A stretch of 64,000 bases of DNA from NCBI GenBank assembly GCA_963828465.1, contig CAWHEU010000022.1, positions 347,400-411,399 of the forward strand. The letters are read 5' to 3'. The notes under the pieces were generated by a model, which saw only the letters and a list, made by a program, of their open reading frames with translations, had not been told where the DNA came from and made no database searches. The position numbers and the translations under genes are program-made. Source of the stretch: an uncultured Acidobacteriota bacterium. Its GTDB lineage: Bacteria; Actinomycetota; Acidimicrobiia; Spongiisociales; ZC4RG35. Shown piece by piece: positions 40,499 through 50,239 of this stretch. How positions within the stretch are numbered: the stretch's first letter is position 1; every line of letters starts with the position of its first letter.

Positions 40499-41500
40499 TT
40501 ACGCAGGGCTGATCGCGAGGTCCCCGGCGCGAAGCCAGCAGGCAGCCTGGTGATGGGGGCCCTGGGGGGAATCCATCAACATGGGATCCTCGACATCGCA
40601 GAGGGATTGTCGGGCGATGGGACAACGAGGGTGGAAATGACATCCGCGGGGTGGGTTGAGTGGCGAAGGGATCTCGCCTTGCAGGATCCTGCGGTTCCGA
40701 GGCCGGTCGGGGTCAGCGATCGGGATCGCGGAGAGAAGAGCCTCGGTATAGGGGTGGAGCGGGTTTCGATACAGGGTGTCCCGATCGGTCAACTCCACGA
40801 CACGGCCGAGGTACATGACCGCGACCCGATCCGAGATGTGCTCGACGACAGCGAGATTGTGGGCGACGAAGAGAAGGGTGAGGGCGAGCTCTTCCTGGAG
40901 CTCGGTGAGCAGATTGAGGACCTGGGCCTGCACCGAGACGTCCAGGGCAGAAACCGGCTCGTCCGCCACGACCAGGTCCGGTTTCAGGATGAGGGCGCGA
41001 GCGATGCCGATTCGCTGCCGTTGGCCACCGGAGAACTCGTGGGGGTAGCGGCTGGCATGGGACGCTCGGAGGCCGACGAGTTCCAGCATCTCTTTGACCC
41101 GCTCCTGCTGCTCATCCTTGGTTCCGATGCCATGGAGACGCAGGCCCTCGGCGATGGCCGGCCCGACCTGTGACCTGGGATCGAGCGAGCCATAAGGGTC
41201 CTGGAAGATGATCTGGACGCGTCGTCGGAAAGGCTTGAGGTCGTTGCCCGAGAGATGGGTGATGTCCTCACCGTCGAATTGGATCGTCCCGGACGTCGGC
41301 TCCATCAGCCGGGTCAGCATCCGGCCAAGGGTGGTCTTGCCACAGCCTGACTCGCCGACGAGGCCCAGAGTCTCCCCTTTGAAGATGTCGATAGAGACGC
41401 CGGCCACGGCCCGGACCGAGGCCACCTGACGTTGCAGGATGCCCCCACGGACGGGGAACTCCTTGACCAGGTCGCGGATCTCGACCAGCGTCTCAGTCAT
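40499..41500 (-). CDS. peptide ABC transporter ATP-binding protein (DppF/OppF-like)
   Basis: Walker A GESGCGKT, signature LSGGQRQR, C-terminal oligopeptide-ABC extension. Confidence 0.88.
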
Positions 41501-42563
41501 CGGGGTCCTCGACCTTCTCCGGCCCGTAGTACAGCCAACAACGAACCTTGTGCCCCTCCTCTACTTCCCGCAGGTCGGGCTCGATCTCGGTACAGATCTG
41601 CAACGCATTCTCGACTCGCGGGATGCACCTCGGAGCGAAGCGGCAGCCCTTGGGGAGGTCGATCATCGAGGGCACTACCCCGGGGATCACATCGAGCTGG
41701 TCCCGGAGCGATCCCAGCACCGGGATGGATCCGATCAGCCCCTTGGTATATGGGTGCAGCGGGTTCCTGAAGATCGAGCGGACATCGGTCTCCTCGACGA
41801 TCTCGCCGGCGTACATGACCGATACCCGGTCGGCCATCTCGGCGACGATTCCGAGATCGTGGGTGATGAGGATGACTGAAGTGTTGGAAGTCTTCTGGAG
41901 GTCCCGGATGAGGTCGAGGATCTGGGCCTGGATGGTTACGTCCAGTGCAGTCGTCGGCTCGTCAGCGATCAACAACTCTGGCTCGCAGGCCAGGGCCATG
42001 GCGATCATGATCCGTTGCGCCATCCCTCCGGACAGCTCGTGCGGGTATGCCTCCGCCCGGCGCTTCGGATCGGGGATCCCGACCTTGGTCAGCATCTCGA
42101 TGACCTTCTCCTCCTCGACTTCGGCGCTCCAGTCACGGTGGAGCTCGAAGACCTCCTTGATCTGCGCACCCGCCCGGTAGACCGGGTTGAGAGCAGAGGT
42201 CGGTTGCTGGAAGATCATCGACATGTGCTCGCCGCGCAGGGCTCGGACCTCGTCGGCCTTCATCCTGGCGATGTCCTTGCCGCCGAAGAGGATCTCTCCG
42301 GCAACCACCTTCCCGGGGTGCGGGATCAGGCCCATGATCGAGAGCGAGGTCACCGACTTCCCGCATCCCGACTCTCCGACCAGGCCCAGGACCTCTCCGC
42401 GCTTGACATGGAAGTCGGCGCCGTCGACGGCTTTGACCACACCCTGCCTCGTGTCGAAATGGGTCTTGAGCCCTCGTACCTCGAGGAGAACTTCGCCTGC
42501 AGGCACCGGCAAGGGTGCGTCTGTATCTATGGCGCTCTCCGGGAGGGGTCGGGCCGCACTCAC
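41493..42563 (-). CDS. peptide ABC transporter ATP-binding protein (DppD/OppD-like)
   Basis: Walker [17 protein letters not shown]. Confidence 0.88.
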
Positions 42564-43491
42564 TTGTTGAGAGTGGGATCGAGAGCATCGCGAAGGCCGT
42601 CACCCATCAGGTTGAAGCCAAGGACAGTGATCATGATTGCGAGCCCGGGGAAGATCATGAGATGGGGGGCGGTGAAGATCCTGTCGCGTTCCTCGGCGAG
42701 CATCGAGCCCCATTCGGGAGTCGGGGGGACGGCACCGAGCCCGAGGAACCCCAGGGCAGCTGCCTCCAGGATCACGGTGGCGATGCCCAGCGTGCCGAGG
42801 ACGACTAGCGGAGTCAGGGCATTGGGGACGACCCGGGTGACGAGAACCTTCCATCGGGATGCGCCCAGGGCCCGGGAGGCCGACACGTAGTCGACCTCCT
42901 TGATCGAGAGCACCGATGCCCTCATCACCCGTGCGTACTGGGGAATGGTGACGATGGCGATGGCGAGCAGCGTGTTGCGGAGGCCAGGACCGAGAACGAA
43001 GACGATGGCGATGGCCAGGATCAGGGACGGGAAACCGAGCACCACGTCCATGATCCGCATCATCACGTTGTCGCTCCACCCTCCTGCATATCCGGCGATC
43101 GCACCGATCACGGTCCCGATGACGATCGTGATGAGGACGGTCGTGAAACCGAGGGGAAGGCTCACCCTGGCCGCATAGATGACCCTGCTGAAGAAGTCCC
43201 TGACATTTCCGTCCAGCCCGAATATGTGCTGGGTCCCCTCGCACCCGAAGGCGTTGATGCAAGGGGGCAACCACCTCTCCGCTCCGGGCTGCCCGATGAA
43301 GTTCTCGTAGGGGTCGTAGGGGGCGATGAGCGGGGCGAATAAGCGACCAGGATCATGAAGCAGACCAGGATCAACCCCACGATCCCGACCTTCCGCTGAA
43401 AGAAGCGCCGTAGGACAATCCGCCACATCGAGCCCGGCTGCTCGAGCAGAGCCTCAGGGTCGGGCACGGTGATATCGGGCCGTAGCGTCAT
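42560..43491 (-). CDS. peptide ABC transporter permease (DppC-like), -1 frameshift near 43340
   Basis: N-terminal helix in ORF 43162-43491 (RRFFQRKVGIVGLILVCFMILVA) continues as LFAPLIAPYDPY in ORF 42560-43426. TT vs TTT at the join. Confidence 0.8.
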
Positions 43492-44567
43492 TCCAGCCTC
43501 ACTCTCGGGTCCAGATAGCCATAGGAGACGTCAACCAACAAGTTCACGACCACATAGGTGGTGGCGATGATCAGGGTGAAACCCTGGATGATGGGGAAGT
43601 CCCTGGCGGTGATCGCCTCGAAAAGGGCTGTGCCCACTCCGGCCAGCCCAAATACCGTCTCGGTGAGCACGGCGCCGCCGAGCAGCAGCCCCAGCTGGAG
43701 CCCGATGATGGTCACGACCGGGAGCATCGCATTGCGGAGGGCGTGCCTTCTCACAACCTTTCGCTCGATCGCTCCCTTGGCCCGGGCGGTGCGGATGTAA
43801 TCGCGGCCCAGTACGTCGAGGAGCGATGACCGGGTCATCCGGGCGATGATGGCCATGGGAATCGTTGCCAGTGTGATGGCGGGGAGGATGAGGTGCTTGA
43901 ACCCGTCCCAGAACACCGCCCATTGGGCGCTGATCAGGGCGTTGGTCACCGTCATGTAGGAGACGAACTCGGCGGCGGTCGCCACGAATCCCTCCTCGGC
44001 GATCTCCCAGCCCCACACCTCGTAGAACGGGAGTCCGCGGTTTCCCGGGCTGAGCGACCCGCTGGGCGGCAAGGCGAAGATCGTGCCCGACAGGACGACG
44101 GCGAACAGATAGGCGAGCAACAAACCAAGCCAGAAGATGGGCATGGAGACGCCGACATTGGCGAAGGCCATCGCCGCCACGTCGACGCCCGAGTTGTGTC
44201 GCCGTGCTGCGGCGATTCCGAGCGGGATTCCGACGATGATCGCCACACTCAGTGCGGCGATGGTGAGCTCGAGCGTCACCGGAAGCCGCTCGATGATTAT
44301 CTGGGTGACCGGCCGGGAGAAGCGGATCGACTCTCCGAGGTCACCGCTGATCACGTTCCCGAAGTAGATGCCGAGTTGGACGATGATCGGCTCGTTGAGG
44401 CCGTTTGCCTCATTGAATCGCTCACAGGCCTCGGCCGTCGCCCTCTCGCCAAGGATGGCGGTGCACGGTTCTCCAGGGAGCAGCCGGACCAGCAGGAACA
44501 CGAGGAGCAGGACCCCGATCAGGACGGGTATCGCGACCAGGATGCGGCGCAGGATGTATCCGATCAT
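43488..44567 (-). CDS. peptide ABC transporter permease (DppB-like)
   Basis: BPD transport-system inner membrane component; N-terminal MIGYILRRIL. Confidence 0.88.
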   Translation of the reverse strand: MIGYILRRILVAIPVLIGVLLLVFLLVRLLPGEPCTAILGERATAEACERFNEANGLNEPIIVQLGIYFGNVISGDLGESIRFSRPVTQIIIERLPVTLELTIAALSVAIIVGIPLGIAAARRHNSGVDVAAMAFANVGVSMPIFWLGLLLAYLFAVVLSGTIFALPPSGSLSPGNRGLPFYEVWGWEIAEEGFVATAAEFVSYMTVTNALISAQWAVFWDGFKHLILPAITLATIPMAIIARMTRSSLLDVLGRDYIRTARAKGAIERKVVRRHALRNAMLPVVTIIGLQLGLLLGGAVLTETVFGLAGVGTALFEAITARDFPIIQGFTLIIATTYVVVNLLVDVSYGYLDPRVRLE

Positions 44568-44643
44568 TTCCTCTGTCCGGAGCGTAGAACGGGGGGAGGC
44601 GCTGGTGCGCCTCCCCCCGTCATCAGTCAGAGTGATCAGAGCG

Positions 44644-46369
44644 TCATCCAGCCGCTGTCGTCGTGGGCGGCGGGTTGATCAGGCCACCCCAGAGGGCAGC
44701 CGGGTATTCGAACACTCCGGTGTTGCCGGTGTGCAGCGGGTTTGCTCCATCGAGCAAGGCGGACCATGAGGCGACCACGTCGTTGGCATCGAACGGAGAG
44801 CCGTCATGGAAGGTGACACCTTCGCGCAATGCGCAGGTCCACACCACGCCCTCGGCGTCCGGCACACACTCGGTGGCCAGCTTCGGCACGGCCTGTCCTT
44901 CGAGGTCGTATCCGTACAAGCGCTTCCTGGGTCTGCTGACACGCCGACAGTGATTCACCGTCGGTCTCATCGGGGCAGTAGAGCGAGATCGGCTCGGCGT
45001 TCTGGACGAACACCAGATCGGTGTCGCCCGGATTCATCAGAGCGAACTGTGGCGCACCGAATGGCGGTGTCACCGCTCCCTCCAGAGTGGCGAGCCCGGC
45101 ATTGGCCGCGGCTCCCCAAGCGATCGGAACCATCGGCACATCCTCGACGAGCAGATCGTTGATCTGCGCGTAGATGGGCTGCGCCGCCGCCGGGTCGACC
45201 GTCCCCGATCCCTCGATCACTGCGGCCGTGATGTCCGGGTTCATCACACCGAACTGGACGTTGATGCCACCGAAGTGATAGTCGAGGAAGTTCGTCACGT
45301 GCGGGTAGTCGGCGCCCCAGCCCAGCAGGTGGATGCCCTCCACCTGGCCGGCGGCCGTCGCCTCGATGAACGCGCCTGACTCCATGACCTCGACCGTGGC
45401 CTCGATCCCCAGATTCTCGGACAACTGGGCCCGGATGTCCTCGGCCACCGCCGTCGGCTCCGGGAGATAGACCCGGAACACGTCGCGGAGCGTGATCGTG
45501 GTCTCGAACCCATCGGGGAATCCGGCCTCTGCGAGCAGCGCCCGTGCCGCTTCGGGATCGAAGTCGGGGAACGGTGCGCCTTCACAGCCGTTCTCCAGGA
45601 TGCAAGGCGTGAAGTGGGTGGCCACTGCCGACCCTTCCGGGTAGAAGGTGTCGATGATCCTCTGCCGGTCGATGCCCAGCGCGATCGCCTGCCGCACCAG
45701 CGGGTTGTCGAACGGAGGGAACTGATTGTTGAACCCCGCGTAGAACACGTTCGGGTTGTTGTCGACGAGCAACTGCAGATTGGCATCACCCTCGATGCCG
45801 GCGTAGTCGCTGGCCGCAAGGTTGGTGATGAAGTCTGCATTGCCCGAGGTCAACTCGGTGATCCGCCCGGTGCTGTCCTCACGCCAGCGGAAGACCAGGG
45901 TGTCGAACGCCGGAGCCTCGCCCCAATAGTCGGGGTTCGCCTCGAAGACGATCTCGGAGCCACGTGCCCAGCCCCCTTCGGGGAGCATGAACGGACCCGT
46001 GCCTACCGGATTCTCCAGCGGGGAGCCGCCGGTCGCCTCGAGGTGCTCGGATGGCTGGATGGAGAACGGGACGAACGCAATCTTCACCAGGAATGCCGGG
46101 TCGGCCGCGCACAGGGTGAAGACGACCTCGCTCGGCGAGGTGGCTTCGATCTTGTTGATCTTGCCCCCGTAATCACAACCCCCCGAGTCGAGGGTGAGCA
46201 ATTCCGACGGCGCCTCGGTAGTGGCGACCGATGTGGTCGTCTCCCCGGCTGCCGTCGTCGTTGCCGCTTCCCCCCCGGTGGTTGTCGTCTCGTCGCCACC
46301 CTCGCTGGCACAAGCGCCGGCGATGAGGGCGAGTACTGCGACGAGCGCCAACCAGCGCATTCGTTTCAT
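44644..46369 (-). CDS. family-5 substrate-binding lipoprotein with an apparently circularly permuted domain order; +1 frameshift near 44915
   Basis: Lipobox LIAGAC. After a T/A/G-rich linker the sequence starts at the equivalent of DppA residue about 140 and runs to the family C-terminus (FALMNPG). It then continues directly into the family N-terminal region (DLVFVQNAEPISLY...YGYDLEGQAVPKLA...REGVTFHDGSPFDANDVVAS) before stopping. Confidence 0.7.
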
Positions 46370-46495: not shown

Positions 46496-48929
46496 TTGAC
46501 CATGATGTCGTATGACCACCAGGCGATCGAAGCGAAATGGCAGGACCGATGGGAGTCGGAGGGCGTGTTTCACACCACCGAAGACTCGACCAGGCCCAAG
46601 TTCTACAACGTGGCCATGTATCCCTATCCGTCGGGGGAGCTGCACATCGGCCACGTCCGCAACTACACCTACATCGACCTGATCACCCGCTACAAGATGA
46701 TGCAGGGCTTCAACGTCTTGAGCCCTATGGGGTGGGACAGTTTCGGGCTCCCGGCCGAGAATCTGGCGATCGAAACCGGCATTCATCCGAGGGTCAGCGT
46801 CGAGGCTCAAATCACCCGAATGAAGGAGCATTTCCGGAAGCTGGGGGCCGCATTCGACTGGAGCCGGGAAGTGGCGAGCCACGACCCTGCCTACTACCGA
46901 TGGGACCAGTGGCTGTTCCTCGAGCTCTACGACCGTGGTCTCGCCTACAAAGCGACCGCGCCCGTCAACTGGTGCCCCAAGGATCAGACCGTGCTCGCCA
47001 ACGAGCAGGTAGTGGATGGCGCCTGTGAGAGATGCGGGACGCTGGTCGAGAAGCGAAACCTCGCCCAATGGTTCTTCAAGATCACCGATTACGCCGATCG
47101 ACTCCTCGATGACCTGGATCATCTCGACGACTGGCCGGACCGGGTCCGCACGATGCAGCGGAACTGGATCGGCCGGTCCGAGGGCGCCCGGTTCAAGATT
47201 CCGATCGACGGCATCGATGCCTCGTTCGATGTGTTCACCACCCGGCCCGACACGATCTTCGGGATGACATTCTGCGTCCTCGCTCCCGAGCACCCACTTG
47301 TCGAGGAGTTGATCTCGGGCACCGACGTCGAGGCCGAGGCCAGGGAGTACATAGCTCGGGCGGCCCGTGAGTCGGAGATCGAGCGTCTCGCCGAGGGCGA
47401 GAAGACAGGGGTATTCACCGGTCGGTTCGCCATCAACCCGGTGGACGGGAAGCCGGTTCCGGTCTACATCGCCGACTATGTGCTGATGGGCTACGGCACC
47501 GGGGCGATCATGGCCGTCCCGGGTCAGGATCAGCGTGACTGGGATTTTGCCGTCAGGTATGGCCTCGACATCGTTCGCACGGTCGACCCGGGCCCTGAAT
47601 GGGAGGGCGAGGCCTTCCTCGGGGACGGGCGGACGATCAATTCCGAGTTCCTGGACGGTCTCGACCGGGCCGGGGCAAAGGAGCGGATCATCACCTGGCT
47701 CGAGGAGCAGGGCATCGGCGAGGGGACGATCCAATACCGGCTCCGTGACTGGCTGATCTCAAGACAGCGTTACTGGGGATGTCCGATTCCGATGGTCGAA
47801 TGCCCCGAATGTGGGCTGGTCCCAGTTCCACGAGATCAGCTTCCGGTGACCCTGCCCGAGGTCGAGGACTATGCCCCGAAGGGACGCTCACCTCTGGCGG
47901 CCGTCGAGGATTGGGTGGCCACGACGTGTGCCCAGTGTGGGGGACCGGCCAGCCGGGAGACCGACACCATGGACACCTTCGTCGACTCGTCCTGGTACTA
48001 CTTCAGGTACACCGACCCCCACAACGTGGAGGCCATCTTCGACCGGGCCAAGGCCGAGTACTGGATGCCACTCGATCAGTACATCGGTGGGGTCGAGCAC
48101 GCGATCCTCCACCTTCTCTACGCCAGGTTCATCACCAAGTTCCTCAATGACATCGGGCTGAGCCCGGTCACCGAGCCCTTCAGGCGGATGTTCACCCAGG
48201 GGATGCTCGTGAAGGACGGGGCAAAGATGTCCAAATCCAAGGGCAATGTCGTTCCACCAGACCGCTATTACCAGGAGTACGGCGCCGATGCCCTGCGCTT
48301 GTTCGAGCTGTTCGTGGGGCCGCCGACCGACGACGCCGTATGGAATGACAGCGGTGTTCCCGGCACGAAGCGGTTCCTCGACCGGGTTTGGAAGATGGGC
48401 ACCGCCGATCATCCCTTCGTGGACCGCGGCAGCGAACGATGACGATGCCGTGCTGATGGCGGAGACGCATCGCGCATTGAAGCGGGTCACCGAGGACATC
48501 AACCGATTCCACTTCAACACCACGGTCTCCTCGCTGATGTCCCTGGCCAACGTGTTCCAGGAGTACCTGGGCCGCTCGCCGGTCGAGAAGACCTTCGACG
48601 AGGCTTACCGGATCATGGTCCTGATGCTGGCGCCCGCCGCACCCCATGTCGCCCACGAGTTGTGGGAGATGAGGGGGATGGGATCGATGCTGGCGGAGGA
48701 ACCCTGGCCCGGGTGGGACGAGTCGCTCGTGGCGGAGTCGACCGTGACCATGGTGGTCCAGGTCAACGGGAAGGTGCGCGACAGGGTCGATGTGCCGGCT
48801 GACATCACCGCCGAGGAGGCGGAGCGGGTGGCGCTCGACCTCGACAAGGTCCAGGGTTGGATCGACGGCGCCGTGGTGCGCAAAGTCATCGCCCGTCCAC
48901 CGAGCGTCATCAACTTCGTCGTGGGGTGA
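46496..48929 (+). CDS. leuS: leucyl-tRNA synthetase, +1 frameshift near 48435
   Basis: HIGH-type class I motifs (PYPSGELHIGH), KMSKS; the C-terminal anticodon-binding part continues in ORF 48246-48929. Confidence 0.88.
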
Positions 48930-49327: not shown

Positions 49328-50239
49328 CTATTCGACTACCACTCCATCCAGATCCGGCTCGGGCGGATAAGTCGGATTCATCTGCTCCAGCGCTTTGATC
49401 AAAATGCTCGCCACGGCCAGGTCGCGGTACCACTTACGATCTGCAGGCACCACGTACCACGGCGCATGCTCGCTCGAAGTGCGGCTGAGAGCCTCCTCGT
49501 AGGCGAGGGAGAAGTCTTCCCACAATTTGCGGTCCTCGAGGTCGCCGACGTTGAACTTCCAACGCTTGTCCGGTTCCTTTAGACGGGCCTCGAGACGCTC
49601 CTTCTGCTCCTCTTTCGAGATGTGGAGGAACAGCTTGACCACGGTCGTCCCTTCATCGACCAGCAGCCGTTCGAATTCGACGATGTGGGCGTAGCGCTGA
49701 CGCCAGCGTTGCTCCGGGACCAGGCCCTTCACCCGCACTATCAGGACGTCCTCGTAGTGGGAGCGGTTGAAAATGGCTATCCCGCCGTTCTCCGGGGTTC
49801 GTTGATGGATGCGCCAGAGATAGTCGTGGGCTAACTCCCACTCATTAGGAACGCCGAATCCCCAGACCCGGACCCCCTGTGGGTTGACCCCCTTGAACAC
49901 GCTGCGGATGGTCCCGTCCTTTCCGCCAGTGTCCATTGCCTGAAGGACGATCAGCAGTTTTTGCTTCGACTCGGCCCAGAGACGCGTCTGCAGCTCAGCC
50001 AGTGTCGAGTTCAACGGCTTCAGCGCCTCCTTGCCCTCGGACTTCCCTCCGTCGAAGCCTTCCGTGGAACGGGGGTCCCGGGCGGCGAGGTTGGCCTCGT
50101 TGCCGGGGGGGACCAAATAGGGGGCGATGTCGAGCACGAGGCCGACCCTACCGAACGACCTTCTTCCCTCATCGGCAGCCGATTGGTATCTACGAAGTGA
50201 GTGGAGCGCGGTCGGTGGGGGTCGCAATGGGTCGAACAC
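49328..50239 (-). CDS. polyphosphate kinase 2 family protein
   Basis: PPK2 Walker A LLIVLQAMDTGGKDG; lid region. The start may be internal (the annotated start overlaps the comEA start). Confidence 0.8.
   Translation of the reverse strand: MFDPLRPPPTALHSLRRYQSAADEGRRSFGRVGLVLDIAPYLVPPGNEANLAARDPRSTEGFDGGKSEGKEALKPLNSTLAELQTRLWAESKQKLLIVLQAMDTGGKDGTIRSVFKGVNPQGVRVWGFGVPNEWELAHDYLWRIHQRTPENGGIAIFNRSHYEDVLIVRVKGLVPEQRWRQRYAHIVEFERLLVDEGTTVVKLFLHISKEEQKERLEARLKEPDKRWKFNVGDLEDRKLWEDFSLAYEEALSRTSSEHAPWYVVPADRKWYRDLAVASILIKALEQMNPTYPPEPDLDGVVVE

Follow-up and report, generated by a model that had tools for sequence, protein, structure and literature searches.

A family-5 substrate-binding lipoprotein gene with a circularly permuted chain order upstream of dppBCDF in an uncultured bacterium

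We analysed a 64,000-nucleotide stretch (the window) of contig CAWHEU010000022.1, from the assembly GCA_963828465.1 of an uncultured bacterium, and describe here a gene that encodes a substrate-binding lipoprotein of family 5 (cluster C) and has Dpp-type permease and ATPase genes directly downstream. Its open reading frame (ORF) runs on the minus strand from an ATG at 46369 to 44804 (521 amino acids, aa); the rest of the coding sequence is in a second frame, which ends with the stop at 44646..44644. The two frames meet where ...SACQQTQEAL is followed by YGYDLEGQAVPKLATE..., a join that requires dropping one base. A ribosome-binding site (AAGGGAGG) lies upstream of the start codon, and a lipobox (LIAGA-C20) ends the signal peptide. 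The repaired protein scored 253.7 bits against PF00496 (cut-off 32.4), which bears out the family named in the original prediction for this locus, and the Pfam scan matched it in two stretches. The parts of the gene are listed below; model confidence is given as the predicted local distance difference test (pLDDT), and homologue counts refer to the 99 diverse permuted sequences used throughout.

44644-46369, minus strand: circularly permuted family-5 substrate-binding lipoprotein gene, 574 aa after dropping the extra base at 44917; stop codon 44644-44646
46310-46369, minus strand: signal peptide and lipobox MKRMRWLALVAVLALIAGA-C20; Cys20 kept in 93/99 homologues, residues 3-18 predicted to be helical
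46196-46309, minus strand: flexible tether rich in Thr, Ala, Glu and Gly (residues 21-58); pLDDT <50 at residues 20-50, length and sequence variable among homologues
45032-46195, minus strand: Segment A (residues 59-446), from DppA mature residue ~124 to the native C-terminus
45011-45040, minus strand: junction (residues 444-453, LMNPGDTDLV), native C-terminus joined to native mature N-terminus
44647-45031, minus strand: Segment B (residues 447-574), the relocated native N-terminal segment
44917, minus strand: extra base, with the frame shifted after residue 484; CTTGTAC in the window, base lacking in five relatives

In canonical cluster C proteins the chain makes the N-terminal strand of domain I, domain II, domain I, lobe 2 and the C-terminal strand of domain I in that order, whereas in the window protein this order is rotated. 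After the signal peptide, lipobox and linker, it runs from the equivalent of DppA mature residue ~124 to that of the C-terminus, and then from the DppA N-terminus to ~117. We aligned a family profile built from the 99 homologues of the permuted type with E. coli DppA (8z1y_F, precursor numbering, 535 aa). Profile positions 62-437 matched DppA 152-533 (independent E-value, i-E, 1.1e-89) and positions 437-550 matched DppA 25-145 (i-E 1.2e-23), while 442-551 matched HbpA 4-120 (i-E 1.8e-24). The two swapped blocks, each present once, together span nearly the whole DppA chain (25-145 plus 152-533), and the same two-block pattern was found in 60/60 of the PDB matches listed. With phmmer, for example, query residues 71-443 aligned with 152-530 of Pseudoalteromonas DppA (4qfk) and residues 449-551 with 28-138. 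The split, reordered match to family profiles and to sequences of solved structures that had been anticipated was thus obtained, with both segments significantly homologous to canonical proteins. Judged from these alignments, the order is permuted and not a product of chance. The chain also begins inside the canonical one, as had been proposed, although at precursor residue ~152 (mature 124) and not at about 140.

Profile position 437 both closes the match to the DppA C-terminus (533 of 535) and opens the match to its N-terminus (25). This agrees with the earlier claim that the native C-terminus runs into the native N-terminus, with few residues at most between them (LMNPG-DTD-LVFVQNAEP). So short a junction is plausible, given that in OppA-like proteins both termini are close neighbours in domain I (PMC10924461). 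Of domain II, the final third is in Segment A and the initial two thirds are in Segment B. Domain I contributes its first strand to Segment B, and most of its body and its closing strand to Segment A, which also holds the whole of lobe 2. In mature DppA numbering the new termini fall at ~117/124, within the extra domain of lobe 1 (domain II), which is a refinement of the original prediction. No further N-terminal segment is present upstream, as predicted, since leuS lies on the opposite strand with its start at 46496, separated from the binding-protein gene by a 126-bp spacer.

A structure was modelled with AlphaFold2 for P0001, a relative 97% identical to the repaired window protein. An alignment of 18 sequences gave an unconvincing pLDDT of 66.7; the 99 diverse permuted sequences gave a pLDDT of 91.5 and a predicted template modelling score (pTM) of 0.87, with the five models between 90.5 and 91.5. 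As means of 10-residue blocks, pLDDT was 94-98 over residues 431-460 at the junction and 94-98 through Segment B up to residue 560, falling to 83 for residues 561-570. Only the signal peptide with the tether and the last five residues are disordered in the model, which has a two-lobe Venus-flytrap fold with an extra domain in lobe 1. No solved structure with the permuted topology was found in the PDB. Homology and the model together suggest that the relocated segment would be equivalent in three dimensions to the native N-terminal segment.

An alternative account is that the C-terminal 128 residues are an unrelated added domain and that the protein is a truncated binding protein whose N-terminal segment has been lost. 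Single-sequence phmmer matches of the segment are indeed weak (i-E 0.017-0.17). However, the family profile aligns it block for block with DppA 25-145 and HbpA 4-120 (i-E 1e-23 to 1e-24), identifying these residues as the missing N-terminal segment, as had been proposed. It also carries the most conserved positions of the family, including the motif LA..C.P...G.VWTC.LR.GV.FHDGS.FDA.DVV, with L484 and A498 invariant in the 99 sequences, and it is modelled at the confidence given above within one rigid body. At the sequence level the profile matches refute the truncation account, which we find hardly credible.

A search for homologues that share the permuted order had been suggested as a check, and intact, colinear proteins were found from 97% down to ~30% identity. 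Searching 5.8 billion proteins gave intact homologues 563-586 aa long, from many sources and in >100 clusters, with identities of 60-97% and coverage of 98-100%; the closest of them are intact at 573-574 aa and 91-97% identity. When representatives of 50%-identity clusters were searched with phmmer, 106 of the 150 best were colinear with the window protein, down to ~30% identity, and canonical-order proteins turned up only from E ~1e-55. Among GTDB species representatives, 589 relative stretches were confirmed, and the best 80 of the 589 were all colinear (Acidimicrobiia, Nitriliruptorales, Anaerolineae, Ardenticatenales and Caldilineales). The window sequence is closest (96-98% protein identity) to metagenome-assembled genomes of Actinomycetota/Acidimicrobiia. 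Source names of the homologues are generic ("ABC transporter substrate-binding protein"), and neither these names nor Pfam or NCBIfam models flag the topology. The permuted proteins are therefore a large, old family and not a one-genome oddity, a second refinement of the original prediction.

The same comparisons bear on the possibility, raised with the original prediction, that a canonical gene duplicated in tandem was collapsed or misjoined in the assembly, so that the organism itself would lack the permuted order. The window does contain single-base indels, at 44917, 48430 and 43341. Against such an artefact, the order, breakpoints and junction recur in >100 independently assembled sequences, to ~30% identity, and the same order is carried by complete chromosomes (OZ244195.1, CP075367.1) and by two isolates (Salsipaludibacter albus and Allorhizobium taibaishanense). 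Moreover, the gene comes with a ribosome-binding site, a signal peptide and a stop codon of its own, and neither segment occurs in a second copy. The recurrence of the order already refutes misassembly, to which we give next to no weight.

The homologue from Allorhizobium taibaishanense (L080 3875-5536, NZ_MKIN01000021.1) is 55% identical and comes from a cultured alphaproteobacterium. It has an ordinary cleavable Sec signal (cleaved between AFA and FEG) but neither lipobox nor tether; the topology is thus not confined to lipoproteins. It is possible that this gene was gained by horizontal transfer, because the other top matches are all from Actinomycetota or Chloroflexota.

An indel had been placed near 44915; a single-base frameshift is indeed present, and the sequences of relatives place it at 44917. 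Five of them (L001, L002, L003, L005 and L035) read CTC-TAC or CTA-TAC where the window reads CTTGTAC, and the break is therefore a single inserted base. Compared with L001, other uncompensated single-base indels occur in leuS at 48430 and in dppC at 43341. The first splits leuS (46496-48929, plus strand) into ORFs of 648 aa and 227 aa, and the second splits dppC (42560-43491, minus strand) into ORFs of 109 aa and 288 aa. These indels indicate sequencing or assembly errors scattered across the window. With similar frameshifts in dppC and in the essential gene leuS, the most likely cause of the extra base at 44917 is also such an error, and the gene would be intact in the organism.

The main residual rival is that the permuted family is genuine but the window copy is a real pseudogene, killed by a true 1-bp insertion. 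The insertion stands in the sequence, and the frameshift in dppC, a gene of the same operon, would fit decay of the whole operon. However, the neighbouring leuS is both essential and single-copy and is frameshifted likewise, which argues for sequencing error as the common cause. Aside from the one base, the protein is 97% identical to intact relatives and has no further lesions, and the related assembly L001 shows a similar split in another gene, PPK2. We consider it unlikely that this copy is dead. In L001 (4208-5018), PPK2 is split into calls of 149 aa and 104 aa, whereas the window PPK2 is one ORF of 303 aa (49328-50239, minus strand); the relative therefore has frameshift errors of its own.

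The transporter genes downstream of the binding-protein gene are the following.

40499-44567, minus strand: block of dppB, dppC, dppD and dppF, identified as ORFs
43488-44567, minus strand: dppB, ORF
42560-43491, minus strand: dppC, ORF with a frameshift near 43341
41493-42563, minus strand: dppD, ORF
40499-41500, minus strand: dppF, ORF

Locus L001 is a colinear ortholog (85.5% nucleotide identity to the window over 13.9 kb) whose Pfam domains are BPD_transp_1, OppC_N with BPD_transp_1, and two copies of ABC_tran with oligo_HPY. It also keeps the binding protein-dppBCDF operon beside leuS, with the binding-protein gene intact (573 aa). Both in the window and in L001, the permuted gene is the sole binding-protein gene in a complete dppBCDF operon.

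Two sets of residues in the binding protein are informative about ligand and fold.

45308-45475, minus strand: Arg299 (45473-45475) and Asp354 (45308-45310), aligned with R383 and D436 of E. coli DppA
46109-46177, minus strand: Cys65 and Cys87, which covary and lie at the new N-terminus; both Cys in 94/99 homologues

In DppA, R383 binds the carboxyl terminus of the dipeptide and D436 its amino terminus (PMC12136057). The aligned residues lie in clear context (R299 in RDVFRVYLP, D354 in GWGAD) and are invariant in 18 close homologues. Because this Arg/Asp pair is retained, together with the dppBCDF partners, the sequence points to a ligand that would be a short peptide or a similar molecule with free amino and carboxyl groups. 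The family profile as a whole matches DppA at E 1e-116. No NCBIfam equivalog model was passed; the DppA_dipep score, 127 bits, is below its cut-off of 1005.

Clean covariation was seen in the family for four cysteine pairs: 65-87 (94/99), 256-262, 465-477 and 501-512. In DppA a Thr aligns with Cys87, and the match to DppA begins only after Cys65. The Cys65-Cys87 pair is a hallmark of the main permuted clade and is probably a disulfide staple for the new chain end.

Our preferred reading, to which we assign a probability of roughly 0.85, is that the gene encodes a functional, conserved, circularly permuted cluster C binding lipoprotein of peptide type, serving the adjacent DppBCDF-type importer, and that the frameshift is a sequence error. 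Several points weigh against this reading. The frameshift at 44917 is physically present in the window sequence, and the structure was modelled for a close relative. The placement of the relocated segment rests on homology and model confidence. Furthermore, the two putative ligand-binding residues are not universal in the wider family (R299 in 66/99 members, D354 in 74/99), and the main permuted clade itself yielded no tandem-fusion intermediate.

If the protein works as proposed, it would be lipidated at Cys20 after Sec export and would hang on a disordered tether of ~38 residues. The chain would begin in the middle of domain II, the extra domain, and pass through domain I. It would then cross hinge 1 to lobe 2, return via hinge 2 and make the native C-terminal strand of domain I. 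From there it would run unbroken into the usual first strand of domain I and end by completing domain II. Since neither the cleft nor either hinge crossing would be altered by the permutation, the usual Venus-flytrap closure, and docking on DppBC as in canonical proteins, would be expected. What would change is the exit point of the chain ends, and with them of the lipoprotein tether, which would lie in the peripheral domain II and not at the central sheet of domain I.

Another explanation is that the protein is not part of a transporter but a recruited sensor or receptor domain, with the permutation an adaptation for fusion or tethering via domain II. The permuted domain does form the C-terminal end of some multidomain proteins, whose other modules are Ser/Thr kinase, caspase plus FHA, SBP_bac_3 or Peripla_BP_6, and a tethering rationale has been proposed for a permuted cluster B protein, TpMglB-2 (PMC4990184). 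In the window and in L001, however, the complete dppBCDF operon has no other binding-protein gene, and the Allorhizobium member, with its cleavable signal and without a tether, indicates that the topology is not tied to anchoring. A sensor role for the window protein is very improbable.

The multidomain fusions themselves (P0122, P0128, P0131, P0134, P0150, P0152 and P0157), in which the permuted domain is at the C-terminal end and the partners also include zinc-ribbon modules, suggest that the permuted domain is used there as a sensor domain. We considered whether these homologues of 700-1400 aa were over-called ORFs and rejected this, as the extra domains are real. P0122 and the canonical P0270 share an SBP_bac_3 module that is 70% identical, while their family-5 topologies are different.

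By sequence, fold and operon, the window protein belongs to the same family as the canonical cluster C (family 5) proteins, such as E. coli DppA (1DPP, 8Z1Y), HbpA/GbpA of Glaesserella parasuis (3M8U) and Pseudoalteromonas DppA (4QFK). The only natural precedent for its rotation that we found in the literature is TpMglB-2 (Tp0684) of Treponema pallidum, a circularly permuted glucose-binding lipoprotein of cluster B and the founding member of "Cluster Bc / Type Ic" (PMC4990184). In TpMglB-2 the first ~100 canonical residues sit at the C-terminus, and the protein is still a Venus-flytrap binder. Its family is found mostly in organisms with tethered lipoprotein binding proteins, and a possible link to tethering was proposed (PMC4990184).

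Both proteins are natural circular permutations of an ABC-transporter binding protein, but TpMglB-2 is a sugar-binding cluster B (type I) protein of another sequence family, whereas the window protein is of cluster C. TpMglB-2 gains a fourth hinge crossing, while the hinge count of the window protein is unchanged. In TpMglB-2 the moved segment has hardly any sequence similarity to the canonical one (13%), whereas that of the window protein is clearly homologous (i-E 1e-23). In addition, recurrent or multiple cut sites are not reported for TpMglB-2. All significant structural and sequence matches of the window protein are to cluster C, so it falls outside cluster Bc and is an analogue of TpMglB-2, not a relative from the same family. 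Periplasmic binding proteins that were circularly permuted by design, for use in biosensors (PMC6335823, PMC5087393), likewise show that the superfamily tolerates fused native termini and new termini in surface loops, but these are man-made, mostly of clusters B, D and F, and outside natural transport operons. In the full-text literature we found no description of natural circular permutation in family 5 or cluster C, which does not prove that there is none. The sequences are already in databases, and the topology appears to have gone unrecognised.

Permutation by duplication has classically been proposed for DNA methyltransferases and other natural permutants. The permuted order in the present family would have arisen in the same manner, by a tandem duplication, then fusion of the end of one copy to the start of the next, then loss of the outer parts. 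Such an origin is most likely on sequence grounds, because the junction joins the canonical C-terminus to the canonical mature N-terminus with the signal peptide deleted. Related permutants cut in lobe 2 have the same end-to-start fusion signature. Two further proteins among the relatives, P0161 (1202 aa) and P0200 (1137 aa), appear from their gene calls to consist of two complete canonical family-5 units in tandem with few residues between them. This layout is the intermediate that permutation by duplication predicts.

The lobe-2 permutants are of two types, 2a and 2b. In both, a normal lipoprotein signal is followed by a start in lobe 2, in a loop that corresponds to window residues ~284-288. 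A cut at the hinge was considered for them and rejected; DppA numbering puts it within lobe 2, between the helix PEAARALLAEAG and the strand TTITL. Type 2a (the P0132 family; locus L082 8001-9737) comprises at least 60 clusters from Chloroflexota, and no other binding protein is encoded in its dpp operon. Its two swapped blocks are 84% and 73% identical to proteins of the window topology (P0329, P0332), and its internal linker keeps the tail of that topology and the N-terminal motif that precedes the cysteine (NGLLS..APDCEYGG). Type 2b (the P0256 family; locus L083 8001-9746) accounts for 51 of the 119 other top matches, from Anaerolineales, and is encoded by the first gene, and sole binding-protein gene, of a dppABCDF operon. 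Its swapped blocks are 85% and 90% identical to canonical proteins (P0435, P0436), its signal peptide is 59% identical, and its junction joins ADYFEGVTVE to GSDTFVFGRGG. By these identities, type 2a would be derived from the permuted topology of the window protein and type 2b from canonical proteins.

We built a neighbour-joining tree from a colinear block of 371 columns with 200 bootstraps; it is a distance tree from limited sampling. The window clade was recovered with type 2a nested inside it (98% support), type 2a grouped with P0332 and P0338 (100%), and type 2b grouped with the canonical P0270 (100%). A single clade of all proteins with the window order had 0% support, and P0262 and P0193 were nearer to canonical sequences. 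P0262 is 42% identical to the canonical P0270 and 28% to P0001, and it has no equivalent of Cys87. With the chain order of the window protein but a place outside its clade, P0262 and P0193 may represent an independent origin of the same permutation. The groupings in the tree therefore imply at least three, probably at least four, permutation events, two of which, within this sampling, would have converged on the same lobe-2 loop. Two of the events are recent, with permutant and parent ~73-90% identical over the swapped blocks and the signal peptide and operon type still shared. On balance, we lean towards viewing the subfamily as a natural hotspot of circular permutation, with three topologies (canonical, domain II and lobe 2) and at least 3-4 independent events.

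If this view is right, the window gene represents an undescribed "cluster C-c" class, and the natural pairs could be used to test how the position of the chain ends and lipid tether affects folding, hinge dynamics and docking. Cluster C proteins are among the most abundant and best-studied components of bacterial transport, and their classification and domain models assume one chain order, so that a rotated clade gives split or partial matches to the standard models. A large permuted clade is moderately surprising in so well-studied a family, and repeated, recent permutations among close relatives are more so; with the latter it becomes possible to test directly how natural circular permutation proceeds and what follows from it. 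Permutant and parent, at 73-90% identity over the swapped blocks, form an unusually clean natural system for permutation by duplication. The fold accepts joined native termini as well as new chain ends in either domain II or lobe 2, which is useful for the design of biosensors. As a second, independent case beside TpMglB-2, the protein also raises the question of whether a shift of the tether point matters in the lipoprotein binding proteins of single-membrane bacteria.

One further feature lies between the binding-protein gene and dppB.

44588-44621, minus strand: GC-rich 15-bp hairpin separating the stop codon of the binding-protein gene from the start of dppB; -42.7 kcal/mol, z = -5.3

None of 200 shuffled sequences folded equally well (0/200), and no clear U-tract follows the hairpin. 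Its position and stability are consistent with a role in differential expression or mRNA stabilisation, and it may act as an mRNA stabiliser or partial terminator that lifts expression of the binding protein above that of the permease.

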